DNA of 4,723 nucleotides. Source: a virus (lineage: Duplodnaviria > Heunggongvirae > Uroviricota > Caudoviricetes). The stretch lies in the IMG/VR virus record IMGVR_UViG_2703718868_000011, one strand, 5' to 3'. Each line of letters opens with the position of its first letter. Positions within the stretch are counted from its first letter, which is position 1. Positions 1,033 to 4,723 of the stretch are shown in pieces. The translations under genes and the position numbers were made by a program. Below the pieces are notes generated by a model. The model worked only from the letters and a program-made list of their open reading frames with translations, was not told the origin of the DNA and made no database searches.

Positions 1033-2028
1033 TTATGGGCAAAATCTGGACAACTCCGCAACCGGATTGAACCTTACCGCGTCCTGGAGATAATCAGGTG
1101 CAAAGTGCGCATAGGTCATTGTTTGCTGAATTGTGCTGTGCCCTAAAATACGCTGAAGGGTAATAATGTTCCCTCCATTTATCATGAAATGAGTTGCGAA
1201 TGTGTGCCGTAAAACATGCACAGACTGACCGACTGGTAAATCAGGCCGCACAGTCCTTATTGCACTTCTGACTATCGCATAACTGGGATTCATTAATCTT
1301 CCAGTCGCTTTGACTTTAATCAGAGATTCAAGATCTTTAGCTATAGGAATAACCCGCCGCGATCCATTCTTTGTCTCCATGAAAATAACCTTCCCACCAA
1401 TTATGTGTTCACCTTTAATATTGGCAACTTCACCCCAGCGCCCGCCTGTAGCCAGGCTTAACAATACAGCCTTAAGATTATCGCCAGATAAAAGTGCGGT
1501 TAGCCTGGGAATATCATCATGTGCAAGATAAGCCATTTCCGGCTGATTAATTGTTAGCTTGCGTATCTCGTGAAACGGGTTATCACCCACAAACTCTTCA
1601 ACATCAATCAGCTTTTCAAAGAAACCACTCATCATTGCACAATAACGATTTACCGTTGACTGCTTAATTCCGCGATTCATTAATTCAAGGCGATATCTGA
1701 TAATATTTTTTCGGGTTAAGTGGTCACTTCTGTTAATACCAAGCTCTTGCATATCACGAAGAACCGCTTCAATTCTGACCCGATTCATCGCGCCATAACG
1801 ATGATTCTTACCGTGGTACACCCACCACAGTTCCAGAAGATCGCTTAACGCTTTACGTTCAATAGGTTTTTCGACCCAGTCCTTATCGTGATAATGCGTC
1901 AGAACATGGCGTTCATACATCGCCGCTTCACCACGGGTAGGAAATCGCCGCCGAAATCTTCTTCCTTCAGATCCAGCAGGCCGCACGTCCACACAGTATT
2001 TGCCATCAGCGAGCTTCTTAATCGACAT
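1033..2028 (-). CDS. int: Tyrosine site-specific integrase, P2-like phage integrase family
   Basis: Minus-strand ORF. Preferred start is the ATG at 2028-2026 (MSIKKLADGKY...), preceded on the coding strand by GGGGG about 8 nt upstream; the track ORF extends to 2064 but that start has no ribosome-binding site. Stop is TAA (complement of 1033-1035). C-terminal catalytic signature is present: HVLRHTFATHF (His-x-x-Arg box), GHSTIQQTMTYAHF (catalytic Tyr). About 331 aa, close to P2 Int size. No terminator-like hairpin between the upstream repressor gene and int, suggesting co-transcription. Confidence 0.9.
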   Translation of the reverse strand: MSIKKLADGKYCVDVRPAGSEGRRFRRRFPTRGEAAMYERHVLTHYHDKDWVEKPIERKALSDLLELWWVYHGKNHRYGAMNRVRIEAVLRDMQELGINRSDHLTRKNIIRYRLELMNRGIKQSTVNRYCAMMSGFFEKLIDVEEFVGDNPFHEIRKLTINQPEMAYLAHDDIPRLTALLSGDNLKAVLLSLATGGRWGEVANIKGEHIIGGKVIFMETKNGSRRVIPIAKDLESLIKVKATGRLMNPSYAIVRSAIRTVRPDLPVGQSVHVLRHTFATHFMINGGNIITLQRILGHSTIQQTMTYAHFAPDYLQDAVRFNPVAELSRFCP

Positions 2029-2094: not shown

Positions 2095-2394
2095 TTAACC
2101 AGTCTTCTTGCCGGAGTGGGATGATTCCGCTTCGCTTTGCCCAATGTGTGCGAGAGCCGGTACCACCTGCCCGGCCTTTGGTTCGACCTCATCGAACAAA
2201 AACCAGTCACGGTATTTACGGAAACGAGCGTGCCGCAAAAGAAGGATCCCAAAATCAAGAGGCATCTTAGATTTCCCACTTTCATAGCCATGATATGTAT
2301 AGTAATTAATTCCAATTAAATCAGATAGTTCCTTCATTTTCATCCGTTCAGACTCTCTGATAAGTTTTAATTTCTCATTTTGCGGTATTGACAT
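2095..2394 (-). CDS. Small HTH (XRE-like) immunity repressor, P2 C-type by size and position
   Basis: The 117-aa track ORF was re-started at the internal ATG 2394-2392 (MSIPQNEKLKL...), giving 99 aa, with GGAG (complement of 2407-2410) about 12 nt upstream. Helix-turn-helix pattern in MKELSDLIGINYYTYHGYESGKSKMP. It lies directly upstream of int on the same strand and diverges from the rightward early operon, as does the C repressor of P2 (also about 99 aa). Confidence 0.75.
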   Translation of the reverse strand: MSIPQNEKLKLIRESERMKMKELSDLIGINYYTYHGYESGKSKMPLDFGILLLRHARFRKYRDWFLFDEVEPKAGQVVPALAHIGQSEAESSHSGKKTG

Positions 2395-2416
2395 AATTTT
2401 TCTAATCTCCAATAAT
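2388..2416 (+). promoter_or_regulatory. Candidate rightward early promoter (Pe-like), sigma70-type
   Basis: TTGACA at 2388-2393 (perfect -35), a 17-nt spacer, then AATAAT at 2411-2416 (5/6 match to TATAAT). Predicted start near 2423-2425, about 78 nt upstream of the ATG at 2502. The -35 overlaps the repressor start codon on the other strand. Confidence 0.4.
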
Positions 2417-2418
2417 TT

Positions 2419-2436
2419 TTGTGTATAGCAACACAA
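2419..2436. promoter_or_regulatory. Inverted repeat TTGTGT-N6-ACACAA, candidate operator of the lysis/lysogeny switch
   Basis: Perfect 6-bp arms (TTGTGT / ACACAA) around a 6-bp spacer ATAGCA. It overlaps the predicted start of the rightward promoter and the -10 of the leftward promoter candidate. Confidence 0.4.
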
Positions 2437-2448
2437 GAATAGTCGCAA
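2422..2448 (-). promoter_or_regulatory. Candidate leftward repressor/integrase promoter (Pc-like)
   Basis: On the minus strand, TGcTATACA (complement of 2430-2422) is an extended -10-like element with TTGCGA (complement of 2448-2443) upstream. The spacer is only about 15 nt, so the -35 assignment is weak. The predicted start near 2415 would give a short leader with the GGAG before the repressor ATG. Confidence 0.25.
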
Positions 2449-2501
2449 TTGGTTCTACATGGTCCCTATTCGAAAAAGGGGCCAATAACGGAGGATACCA
2501 G

Positions 2502-2927
2502 ATGCAAGAAGTCACTCAAAACGCGCCTGAATCGCCTGCCGAAACACAGTGCGATCAGTTGACAGATGCGCCAGAAACCGCACACCTGAAGACCAGCCGC
2601 AAAGCCCCTGAACGCCAGGAAATCCGGCTTTCACAAAACCCTTCTCATCTCCTGTCAAAAGAAGGGTTTGCGATGTATATCGGCAAGACCGTTGACGCCA
2701 TCGTGAGCATGGCAAAAGCAGGGAAATTACCCGCTGTGTACATGGCGGACCCTCTCAAGCCTGGCGGAAACGCCGAACTCTACATCAACCGGAAAGCGTG
2801 GGATGAAGCCTGCGATCGACTCACTGAAAACGCACCGCAAGAATGGCACGAATGGGAAAACCGACTTTTTTTATTTAAGCCAGCAGCTGGTTCACGGAAT
2901 AAACGCATCAGTAAAAAAGCTGCGTGA
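2502..2927 (+). CDS. Excisionase/Cox-like winged-helix DNA-binding protein, first gene of the rightward early operon
   Basis: ATG at 2502 preceded by GGAGG (2489-2493) 8 nt upstream; TGA at 2925-2927; 141 aa. The track ORF begins at a GTG at 2421 with no ribosome-binding site. The segment FAMYIGKTVDAIVSMAKAGKLPAVYMADP resembles the DNA-binding core of Xis/Cox/AlpA-type proteins. Alternative start at ATG 2673 (GAAGGG 6 nt upstream) would give 84 aa, closer to the sizes of P2 Cox and 186 Apl. Position matches cox/apl in P2-like phages. Confidence 0.65.
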   Translation: MQEVTQNAPESPAETQCDQLTDAPETAHLKTSRKAPERQEIRLSQNPSHLLSKEGFAMYIGKTVDAIVSMAKAGKLPAVYMADPLKPGGNAELYINRKAWDEACDRLTENAPQEWHEWENRLFLFKPAAGSRNKRISKKAA

Positions 2928-2957
2928 TATAGAACTGGCAATCATTGGAGGGGCAAG

Positions 2958-3188
2958 ATGATTAAACACACGGAAATCAGACAAAGAATAAAAATAAGCG
3001 ACGACGCTTCAGTAATAATCTGTAATCAGAACTTAGATGCCATTGTTCGGGCTGGCAACGATTTGTATTTCCATTACCCGACCCATTGCATCGTTGTGAC
3101 ATTTGAAACAGAAGAGTCCTTAAAAAATGCAATGGAGCAGACAGGATTTCAGAATGAAACAGTAATAAGAAAAGACAACTGGGCATAA
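2958..3188 (+). CDS. Hypothetical small protein (76 aa), early operon
   Basis: ATG 2958 with GGAGG (2947-2951) 6 nt upstream; TAA at 3186-3188. Only 30 nt after the preceding stop. No recognisable motif. Confidence 0.6.
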   Translation: MIKHTEIRQRIKISDDASVIICNQNLDAIVRAGNDLYFHYPTHCIVVTFETEESLKNAMEQTGFQNETVIRKDNWA

Positions 3189-3240
3189 ATGCCAATACAC
3201 CGTTATTTCAATTCTTTTAACTTAAGCGGGTTTTTCCGAT

Positions 3241-3576
3241 ATGACACAGCGACGCAACTTCCGCACTGGCACAGAACGCCACGCAGCCCGTTTCTCAACC
3301 AGTGCATCACGCAGCAACACGCACTACAGCCTGCAGGAAACGCACGCCACACCTGACGGGCATCCGGTTAAACAAACCGGTAAACACACCTGGCTGATTA
3401 ATGATGCCGGAATTGTCATTCACCGGGGCGCACGCAACCCGATTACCGGGAATACCTGTTACTCCCTGACTCGCGGAGATGAGCAGTTCGGGCAGGATTT
3501 CACCCTGCACGAAGCATTAAGAACGGCAGACCGATTAATCAGCGGTCGCAGTTTTCAGCATCCATGGGGGAATTAA
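3241..3576 (+). CDS. Hypothetical protein (111 aa) in a GC-rich segment; coding status uncertain
   Basis: Longest ORF in the segment and on the operon strand, but there is no ribosome-binding site before ATG 3241 and the N-terminal half is Arg/Thr/Ser/His-rich and low in complexity. The C-terminal half (WLINDAGIVIHRGARNPITGNTCYSLTRGDEQFGQDFTLHEALRTADRLISG) looks more protein-like. Its stop (TAA 3574-3576) lies 3 nt before the next start. Confidence 0.4.
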   Translation: MTQRRNFRTGTERHAARFSTSASRSNTHYSLQETHATPDGHPVKQTGKHTWLINDAGIVIHRGARNPITGNTCYSLTRGDEQFGQDFTLHEALRTADRLISGRSFQHPWGN

Positions 3577-3579
3577 TAC

Positions 3580-3834
3580 ATGGCAACAACGACAAAAGAC
3601 ATGGCAGAGATAGCATCAGCCTACACAATTATCATACACCGGCTCATAGCTAATAATGCCCGTAATGCACTAAATACAGCAAAACCTTTATGGGAAACAA
3701 AAAAAGATATCATCAGCGCATTACAGGGGCTACAGAAATGCGCCGACCTCGCAGGCGATTACGCCGCATACATGGCTATTGAAGACACGATAGAGAAGAT
3801 TGAATCAGGTAAATCATTAAGCGATTTTGTTTAA
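3580..3834 (+). CDS. Hypothetical small protein (84 aa), early operon
   Basis: ATG 3580 with GGGGG (3566-3570) 9 nt upstream; TAA at 3832-3834. Tightly packed behind the previous ORF. Composition suggests a helical protein; no motif recognised. Confidence 0.6.
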   Translation: MATTTKDMAEIASAYTIIIHRLIANNARNALNTAKPLWETKKDIISALQGLQKCADLAGDYAAYMAIEDTIEKIESGKSLSDFV

Positions 3835-3854
3835 TTGTTTTCCGGGGAAATACA

Positions 3855-4097
3855 ATGGACAAAGAATATAAGGTTCTCATCAATAAAGCCCTTGAGCGCT
3901 TTAACTTTCGCCTGAGTATGTCAGGAGTTGCCGCAGAACATGCAGCAAGAGACTCACTGACCAGAGCAATTCGCAGCCTGTATGATGCAGCTTTTTACGC
4001 TGACGATCTGGATGCTCTCAATGAGCTGTCTGAGCTTGTTCGTGATGCAGAATGCGGAGTACATATTGAGCCATACGCACTTGGGAATGCAGCATGA
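3855..4097 (+). CDS. Hypothetical small acidic protein (80 aa), early operon
   Basis: ATG 3855 with GGGGAAA about 7 nt upstream; TGA at 4095-4097, which overlaps the next start as ATGA. No motif recognised. Confidence 0.6.
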   Translation: MDKEYKVLINKALERFNFRLSMSGVAAEHAARDSLTRAIRSLYDAAFYADDLDALNELSELVRDAECGVHIEPYALGNAA

Positions 4098-4219
4098 GCG
4101 TATTTCTTTCATGGGTGATTCTGATTATTTCCGTGCTTATGGCGATTGGCATTATGCGAATTATCGAAGCGCTGAAAAATATCGAATCTTTATTTACTGG
4201 CGAAGAACGCCGTAAATAA
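4094..4219 (+). CDS. Small hydrophobic protein (41 aa), predicted single transmembrane helix; not in the supplied ORF track
   Basis: ATG 4094-4096 overlaps the upstream stop (ATGA), a typical translational-coupling arrangement; GGGA lies about 8 nt upstream. Translation: MSVFLSWVILIISVLMAIGIMRIIEALKNIESLFTGEERRK. Residues 3-24 form a hydrophobic stretch, followed by a charged tail. TAA at 4217-4219. It fills a gap of about 200 bp in an otherwise tightly packed operon. Confidence 0.45.
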   Translation: MSVFLSWVILIISVLMAIGIMRIIEALKNIESLFTGEERRK

Positions 4220-4298
4220 ATAACCAACCGGACAGAAAACATTAAAACCATCCGCATCTGCGGAGGGCTTCACTCAATCCAGAAACGGAGAAACAGCT

Positions 4299-4577
4299 AT
4301 GAGCACCAATACACCTACAGAAATAAACAAACTATTTACCGACCCGGCGCATATTGAATTGACGCAAAAAACGCTGACTGAAATAACCAATGTACTGGAT
4401 GAAAGAATATCAGAAATAGATAAAGACAAGCATTTTGCCACCTACATGGCCCTGCAAATGCAAAGCATGGCAATGGTGACAGCAAAACAGACCATCAGTG
4501 AACTCTATATGAAAAACCTGCGCCTCGAGCGCGAACTGGCAGAACTCCGGGCACAGTCCGGCCAGTTTTCAGCGTGA
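4299..4577 (+). CDS. Hypothetical protein (92 aa) with a likely coiled-coil C-terminus
   Basis: ATG 4299 with GGAG (4287-4290) 8 nt upstream; TGA at 4575-4577. The C-terminal LYMKNLRLERELAELRAQ is heptad-like. No motif recognised. Confidence 0.6.
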   Translation: MSTNTPTEINKLFTDPAHIELTQKTLTEITNVLDERISEIDKDKHFATYMALQMQSMAMVTAKQTISELYMKNLRLERELAELRAQSGQFSA

Positions 4578-4588
4578 GGGGCAGGTCG

Positions 4589-4723
4589 ATGAACAGCATA
4601 TTTACCGCCACCATGCTGACGCGTTTCACCGATGCCGTGGGCCACGAGTTCATGGTGGAAAGTCATTTGATCACAACGACCACGCCGTGCCCGTCAGACG
4701 CTGATTATCTCTACATCCATCTG
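4589..4723 (+). CDS. 5' end of a further gene, truncated by the window edge (product unknown)
   Basis: ATG 4589 with GAGGGG (4576-4581) about 8 nt upstream, 11 nt after the previous stop. Open for 45 codons to the window end (MNSIFTATMLTRFTDAVGHEFMVESHL...). By position in a P2-like early operon it could start a larger replication gene, but the sequence itself shows nothing that confirms this. Confidence 0.45.
   Translation, partial: MNSIFTATMLTRFTDAVGHEFMVESHLITTTTPCPSDADYLYIHL

Follow-up and report, generated by a model that had tools for sequence, protein, structure and literature searches.

A conserved gene for a predicted small membrane protein overlaps the DUF4754 gene in the early operon of P88-like Escherichia coli prophages

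Small proteins of diverse origin provide the background against which the locus described herein can be viewed. Phage 186 encodes Fil, an inhibitor of cell division, and Dhr, which depresses the replication of the host. SidA (Caulobacter), AcrZ, MgrB, and the type I toxins Hok, TisB, and Ldr are 30-50 amino acids (aa) long and consist of one hydrophobic helix with a short charged tail. Small inner-membrane proteins of other phages act in exclusion or anti-defence, and small phage membrane proteins of known function often reveal vulnerable host targets. A homolog of the peptide examined here, gp07 of phage P88 (YP_009113050.1), has been named 'membrane protein'; the homolog in vB_EcoM-569R5 is named 'putative membrane protein', and 37-aa relatives in UniRef, including Salmonella and Shigella entries, carry the name 'Prophage membrane protein'. 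Literature searches on the peptide, its accession, DUF4754, P88, and CP-933T retrieved nothing functional.

We analyzed a stretch of viral DNA of 4,723 nucleotides (IMG/VR record IMGVR_UViG_2703718868_000011), referred to as the window, which is the left end of a P2-like E. coli prophage. The closest named phage was P88 (Peduoviridae, Xuanwuvirus), with 76.5% DNA identity across the integrase/repressor region and a shared early gene order, and the prophage that carries the small gene is P88-like (P88-type; Xuanwuvirus, P2-like). A YhgA-like (Transposase_31) host gene (1-879) is followed by a tyrosine integrase (1033-2028, minus strand) and a small HTH repressor (2095-2394, minus strand). A strong promoter-like site on the plus strand (2388-2416; TTGACA-17-AATAAT, 11/12 matches) lies between cox and the HTH repressor gene transcribed away from it, at the position of Pe in P2, and is presumed to be the Pe-type promoter of the operon that includes the small gene. 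The rightward early operon begins with a Cox-family gene (2502-2927, plus strand; Pfam Phage_Cox, 1.1e-27; phrog_1831, 5.6e-50) and continues with a 76-aa ORF, a DUF4761 gene (3241-3576), an 84-aa ORF (3580-3834), and, directly downstream of the latter, the DUF4754 gene (3855-4097, plus strand; 80 aa; PF15946, 3.2e-43). Next in this string come the small gene (4094-4219, plus strand) and a 92-aa ORF (4299-4577), after which a further ORF starts.

The E. coli N51 chromosome was 99.8% identical to the window across 3800-4320 and, beyond the window, carried the same string followed by genes for a 'derepression protein', a replication endonuclease, and Ogr, and by P2-type portal, terminase, and capsid genes. 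Gene order in locus L001 and in P88 ran from int through C and cox as far as replication gene A and from there into the late genes, and the annotation of a near-identical chromosome places the start of the late morphogenesis region more than 6 kb downstream of the small gene. A preliminary description of this DNA had assigned the small gene to a prophage early region, and its position in the cox-led rightward operon of a P2-like prophage agrees with that assignment. The early region around it is a variable accessory zone, with a ParE-like toxin, an exonuclease, an SPFH protein, and the derepression protein among its items. Two neighbors merit mention in their own right. The 84-aa protein had a faint match (E=0.1) to phrog_2549, a PHROG also matched by DUF4754, and may be a diverged paralog of the DUF4754 protein. 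The 92-aa protein had weak matches to the PADLOC candidate defence models PDC-M64B (E=3.7e-4) and PDC-M64C (E=3.3e-3).

The ATG at 4094 opens 41 codons that end with TAA at 4217-4219, and the ORF listing of the window gives the product as MSVFLSWVILIISVLMAIGIMRIIEALKNIESLFTGEERRK. The basic anatomy set out in the preliminary description held up. The ATG overlaps the upstream stop within an ATGA at 4094-4097, where the 80-aa ORF (3855-4097) ends in TGA (4095-4097), and the product has a hydrophobic helix (mean Kyte-Doolittle of 2.74 over residues 3-21) and a charged tail (R22, K28, and R39-K41, along with E25, E31, E37, and E38). An ATG-initiated ORF of at least 35 aa with an equally hydrophobic stretch was recovered in 3 of 300 shuffles of the window.

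For comparison, we used 88 homologous loci, comprising 80 IMG/VR contigs as well as E. coli chromosomes and phage records. The 41-codon frame was open in every one of them (88/88). Across 33 distinct 111-nt sequences, NG86 dN/dS was 0.23 (dS 0.64), a ratio of non-synonymous to synonymous change that favors the 41-codon frame, versus 1.1 and 2.5 in the other two forward frames, in which stops occurred in 33/33 and 25/33 of the distinct sequences. Variable columns in the same set numbered 22, 11, and 35 at the first, second, and third codon positions, respectively. When the coding region was divided, dN/dS was 0.23 for the helix and 0.25 for the tail, alongside 0.33 for DUF4754, such that both parts are constrained, and at least as strongly as the DUF4754 protein. 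No indels were found in the first 30 codons among 140 distinct variants. On this comparative evidence, 4094-4219 was confirmed as a genuine conserved protein-coding gene under purifying selection.

The same interval also contains a 77-aa ORF (3982-4215, plus strand) that overlaps the small gene and is listed in the automated ORF track. Were there no gene in the 41-codon frame, either this ORF or an antisense one would be real, or the 41-codon frame would merely be a translational spacer, and, admittedly, no frame in the interval is longer than the 77-aa ORF. Against this reading, 48 of the 51 distinct homologous regions had stops in the 77-aa frame, which also showed a dN/dS of 2.5 and returned no match in family searches (Pfam, PHROG). 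Further, as had been claimed beforehand, it starts inside the upstream gene and has no ribosome-binding site, its anti-SD pairing reaching only -1.9 kcal/mol. The 77-aa ORF as a real gene was thus ruled out by homolog stops, dN/dS above 1, no SD, and no family, and we judged it non-coding. The three reverse frames carried stops in 31, 16, and 33 of 33 distinct sequences, which rules out antisense ORFs as the product, and the purifying selection acting on the peptide sequence is not expected of a mere spacer. Hence, we assign a vanishingly small probability to these alternatives, which the sequence comparisons have already refuted. The preliminary description had also raised the case of homologs with a broken 41-codon frame and a preserved 77-aa frame; the opposite was found, and because the 77-aa frame is broken in 48/51 and the 41-codon frame intact in 88/88, the latter is the coding one. 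The locus offers a clean example of a spurious ORF in an automated track that is longer than the real gene it overlaps.

One element of the preliminary description did not survive, namely that the gene is hidden and had been missed by annotation pipelines. PGAP/RefSeq has a CDS at identical coordinates, WP_000110304.1, a 'hypothetical protein' with 100% identity to the window peptide; in locus L001, the RefSeq CDS at 12295-12420 corresponds to window positions 4094-4219. Every near-identical genome inspected carried this annotation, as did nearly all sampled rows of 1426 matching records. Its absence from the supplied ORF track stems from the length cut-off of that track. Occasional records, such as NC_049344, do lack an annotation of the small gene. 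Overall, the gene is already catalogued: with the CDS present in RefSeq, UniProt, and GenBank phage records, the sequence feature as such is not new.

The cassette formed by DUF4754 and the small gene was detected in 1425 of 5426 complete E. coli genomes (~26%; BLASTN, distant setting), with carriers that include the O157:H7 and O55:H7 lineages, and the features under the cassette match read 'DUF4754 family protein | hypothetical protein' in 23 of 25 sampled rows. The exact 41-aa sequence was present on at least 1000 contigs. A profile search of a 5.8-billion-protein collection recovered 137 proteins, all from Escherichia, unnamed, and with no Pfam domains (family matches E 1e-23 to 1e-13), and an index-free HMMER scan, covering 1.84 billion representatives, yielded 18, all belonging to the family itself, and no outside homolog. 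The small gene was present in just two of 185,579 species representatives, E. albertii and one contig labeled 'Vagococcus'. The latter (L093, NZ_JBQPOM010000071.1, labeled Vagococcus sp. WN89Y) is a Firmicute-labeled contig with an Escherichia-type prophage gene, at 66% identity, and looks like contamination or mislabeling. The family is narrow, being found in Escherichia and in a few Shigella, Salmonella, and Citrobacter. Searches with the peptide gave no model match above threshold in Pfam or NCBIfam and nothing among PDB sequences or in PADLOC. A phrog_5315 alignment (E=0.045, 14.5 bits) covered residues 8-30 only and may reflect hydrophobic composition.

The start of the small gene sits in a conserved setting. 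The ATGA start/stop overlap was kept in 88/88 homologous loci. A weak SD-like GGGAA (4083-4087, plus strand) lies 6 nt before the ATG, with -4.2 kcal/mol versus the anti-SD, a value that 13% of background positions equal or beat. Homologous junctions carried GGGGA, GGAG, or GGAGG, with energies ranging from -4.2 to -10.3 kcal/mol, and all junction types had an SD-like motif. The ATGA overlap and SD-like motif together form the arrangement that would be expected for translational coupling, in keeping with the earlier claim of coupling to the upstream gene. No plus-strand terminator-like site was found across 2300-4723.

Transmembrane prediction likewise accorded with the initial view of the product. 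The predicted transmembrane helix spans codons 3-21 (4100-4156, plus strand; VFLSWVILIISVLMAIGIM), has a summed Hessa dG of -3.3 in addition to the hydrophobicity given above, and is helical in AlphaFold. R22 is placed at the membrane boundary and begins an amphipathic helix in codons 22-36 (4157-4201, plus strand; RIIEALKNIESLFTG), with a hydrophobic moment of 1.66. Modeled with the family alignment, AlphaFold returned one continuous helix over residues 2-39, with pLDDT values of 89-94 over the first 20 residues and ~50-60 at the end. The product is therefore most likely, as far as these predictions go, a single-pass inner-membrane protein in which one hydrophobic helix of ~19-22 residues is followed by a C-terminal half that is amphipathic and net positive. 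The database names independently class it as a membrane protein. An N-out/C-in topology is suggested by the positive-inside rule, since the residues before the helix are uncharged and the positive residues R22 and K28 come after it.

Conservation was mapped onto this model using the 140 distinct variants. M1, S6, and W7 were invariant, and F4, L10, I11, G19, and I24 nearly so; in the tail, conservation was high at R22 and K28, with I23, I24, and I30 also conserved, and substitutions within the helix were I/L/V/M swaps. Residues 37-41 vary or are missing in relatives. Family members are 37, 41, or 45 aa long, with a few of 30, the differences being all C-terminal and the 45-aa forms having frameshifted tails; the existence of these truncated and frameshift-tailed variants indicates that part of the tail is dispensable. 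Conservation was not significantly one-sided along the helix (794 of 5000 permutations reached the observed moment), so that one-faced conservation was rejected as evidence of a packing interface, and, because conservation lies on no single helix face, we claim no defined interface. A lipoprotein or secreted peptide was also rejected, there being no charged n-region and the Cys at position 16 being variable: it is not conserved, given that Cys occurs in 98/140 and Met in 34/140 variants, and the window itself has Met.

The upstream partner was similarly constant in its placement. The ORF preceding the small gene measured 79-81 aa in 86 of the 88 loci, the remaining two running off the contig end, and the small gene followed an ~80-aa relative wherever upstream sequence was present, even at 30-43% identity and without a DUF4754 label. 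AlphaFold confidently modeled the DUF4754 protein as a three-helix bundle (pLDDT 88.6; helices 4-20, 25-48, and 52-67). Fold searches against PDB and viral structures gave generic helical matches only, none at E<=0.001, and with no informative structural match, the route to a function through the fold of this partner was rejected. In the divergent cassette of L092, the peptide was 56% identical by hand count, and its C-terminal 25 residues aligned at 68%, where the upstream partner had drifted to 33%. That the peptide retains 56% identity against 33% for its partner, and that S6, W7, and G19 are invariant or nearly so, was counted for a role that would be sequence-specific rather than that of a bare anchor.

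In the cytoplasm, the peptide tail may have the DUF4754 protein as its partner. In L004, an identical peptide lies behind a DUF4754 allele only 43% identical to that of the window, which makes a complex of co-adapted DUF4754 protein and peptide less credible; since the cassette is mosaic, any contact between the two must use conserved features. The mosaic breakpoint was placed at ~4089-4094, with several genomes (e.g., L004 and NZ_CP027323) matching the window at 99.6-100% from ~4089 onward. Database 'DUF4754' proteins of 103-128 aa were considered as fusions linking the two proteins and rejected as frameshifted read-throughs: among 14 inspected, 11 were frameshift artefacts that leave the DUF4754 frame, mostly into a non-coding frame. 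These records (P0137, P0142, P0145, P0151, P0156, P0163, and others) shift mostly into the 77-aa frame, and are probably due to sequencing or assembly indels. Separately, a degraded prophage of E. coli O111:H8 TW05614 (L091) has DUF4754 without the small gene; IS1203 lies ~60 nt past the DUF4754 end, at the expected small-gene site, and the replication gene is truncated.

Downstream of the small gene, we noted a hairpin with a 5-bp stem, TCCGC-ATCT-GCGGA (4251-4264, strand unassigned), which begins 32 nt after the stop codon and is preceded by an A-run at 4243-4248. It was kept in 78 of the 88 homologous loci, although the downstream gene differs between loci; its loop is variable, and one pair of the stem has undergone a compensatory change from C-G to U-A. 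Read on the minus strand, the hairpin is terminator-like, with TGGTTTT after it; its plus-strand reading lacks a U-tract and overlaps a GGAGG. In a subgroup of 10 loci (L008, at 1639-1734, and L009-L017), another small hydrophobic ORF, of 31 aa, MKNVKAILTIATVWLIFQVCALIWLALKIWG, takes the place of the hairpin region. This putative ORF starts 13 nt after the small-gene stop and has no obvious SD.

With regard to function, we consider it probable, with considerable room for doubt, that this real single-pass membrane gene is expressed early and that its product, oriented N-out/C-in, binds a membrane partner and acts as a modulator, and not as a lytic toxin. As part of an early operon under repressor control, the gene would be silent in the lysogen. 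Following induction or infection, its product would be made early from the Pe-like promoter, coupled to DUF4754, and would insert N-out/C-in into the inner membrane. There it may bind a membrane-embedded partner, be it a host inner-membrane machine, itself, or both, in the manner of a small-protein modulator.

A different use of the same architecture would be membrane damage. A small toxin resembling the type I toxins or holins would oligomerize through its helix, dissipate the proton-motive force, and arrest or kill the host early in the lytic cycle, and the size and layout of the peptide (hydrophobic helix, charged C-terminus) do recall small membrane toxins. The surroundings of the gene argue otherwise. 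We found no promoter specific to the small gene above chance, and promoter-like sites totaled five versus a shuffle expectation of 4.4 +/- 2.2, so that no antisense promoter exceeded chance either; two minus-strand promoter-like sites (9/12 matches) inside the small ORF fall within this chance-level total. Rfam returned no family at E<=1 in the window, and thus no antitoxin RNA. The gene is coupled by overlap into a long operon on which replication and late gene expression still depend, and a long distance separates it from the P2-type lysis cassette of the late region. The cassette is, moreover, intact in 26% of complete E. coli genomes, and the peptide had no PADLOC match, likewise counted against a stand-alone toxin locus. 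We regard the toxin reading as unlikely. The preliminary description had named toxins, cell-division or membrane-complex modulators, and exclusion factors as candidate roles; among these, the only distinguishing result is the absence of type I toxin-locus features. The modulator role is preferred over it because there is no antisense or own promoter and no Rfam RNA, and because the gene precedes replication genes that need expression and lies far from the late lysis genes.

The genomic neighborhood brings in another candidate, in which the peptide acts from the inner membrane during the early phase in superinfection exclusion, blocking DNA entry by other phages, or in anti-defence, disarming a membrane-bound defence effector. 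The early region is a variable accessory zone, the adjacent 92-aa protein has its weak PADLOC candidate matches, and the small inner-membrane proteins of other phages set a precedent. The peptide itself, on the other hand, matched nothing in PADLOC and has no promoter of its own above chance, and a repressor-controlled operon argues against expression in the lysogen, where exclusion usually pays. We hold such a role to be improbable. A bolder possibility is that the peptide, alone or with the DUF4754 protein, is a dedicated host-takeover factor that binds and inhibits one essential E. coli inner-membrane machine (e.g., the divisome or a cell-wall precursor component) or disarms a defence effector. 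This we think a long shot; if true, it would be a widespread, previously uncharacterized small-protein inhibitor, widespread because the cassette occurs in a quarter of sequenced E. coli, O157:H7 included. The value of the locus is as a candidate for function testing: a membrane protein of 37-45 aa that is under clear purifying selection and more conserved than its neighbors.

Comparison with known systems sets the small gene apart from the membrane-active classes that it resembles in outline. SidA, AcrZ, MgrB, Hok, TisB, and Ldr are alike in size and layout, whereas the small gene is phage-encoded and embedded in an operon, and searches of the 1.84 billion representatives, the PDB, Pfam, and NCBIfam detected no homology outside its own family. 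Type I toxin loci have an antisense RNA gene, overlapping or adjacent, with its own promoter, unlike the small gene, at which no antisense promoter rose above chance and no Rfam match was obtained; the toxins are also made from a stand-alone, independently promoted transcript whose ribosome-binding site is regulated and usually occluded, whereas the start of the small gene overlaps an upstream stop in a multi-gene operon. Holins and pinholins belong to a lysis cassette beside the endolysin, under late control, in contrast to the position of the small gene between cox and a replication gene in the early operon. These comparisons, together with the sequence of the product, gave no support to an identity as a type I toxin, a holin, or a lipoprotein. 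TatA/TatE share the combination of a transmembrane helix and an amphipathic helix, with a weak NCBIfam alignment (12.4 bits, E=0.11), and membership was rejected since the cut-off is 104 bits; a TatA-type hinge motif was not evident in the peptide when read by eye.

Among P2-like phages, the likeness to fil and dhr of 186 is positional only: these are two small, overlapping accessory genes that precede the replication genes in the rightward early operon, with a hairpin after the pair. They differ in that Fil and Dhr are not predicted to be single-pass membrane peptides. Fil gave no BLASTP alignment with the peptide at E<=100, Dhr had no similarity when compared by eye from the translation only, and P2 Orf78 had none either. 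P88 gp07, in turn, is a true homolog, at 63% identity over the full length (tblastn, E 6e-9). The gp07 family occupies the same place after DUF4754, with the same ATGA overlap and in the same early operon, as supported by the annotated context in L001-L004, P88, L090, and L092, and the two forms differ at the C-terminus, the window allele being 41 aa and ending in EERRK and the P88 form being 37 aa and ending in TGE.
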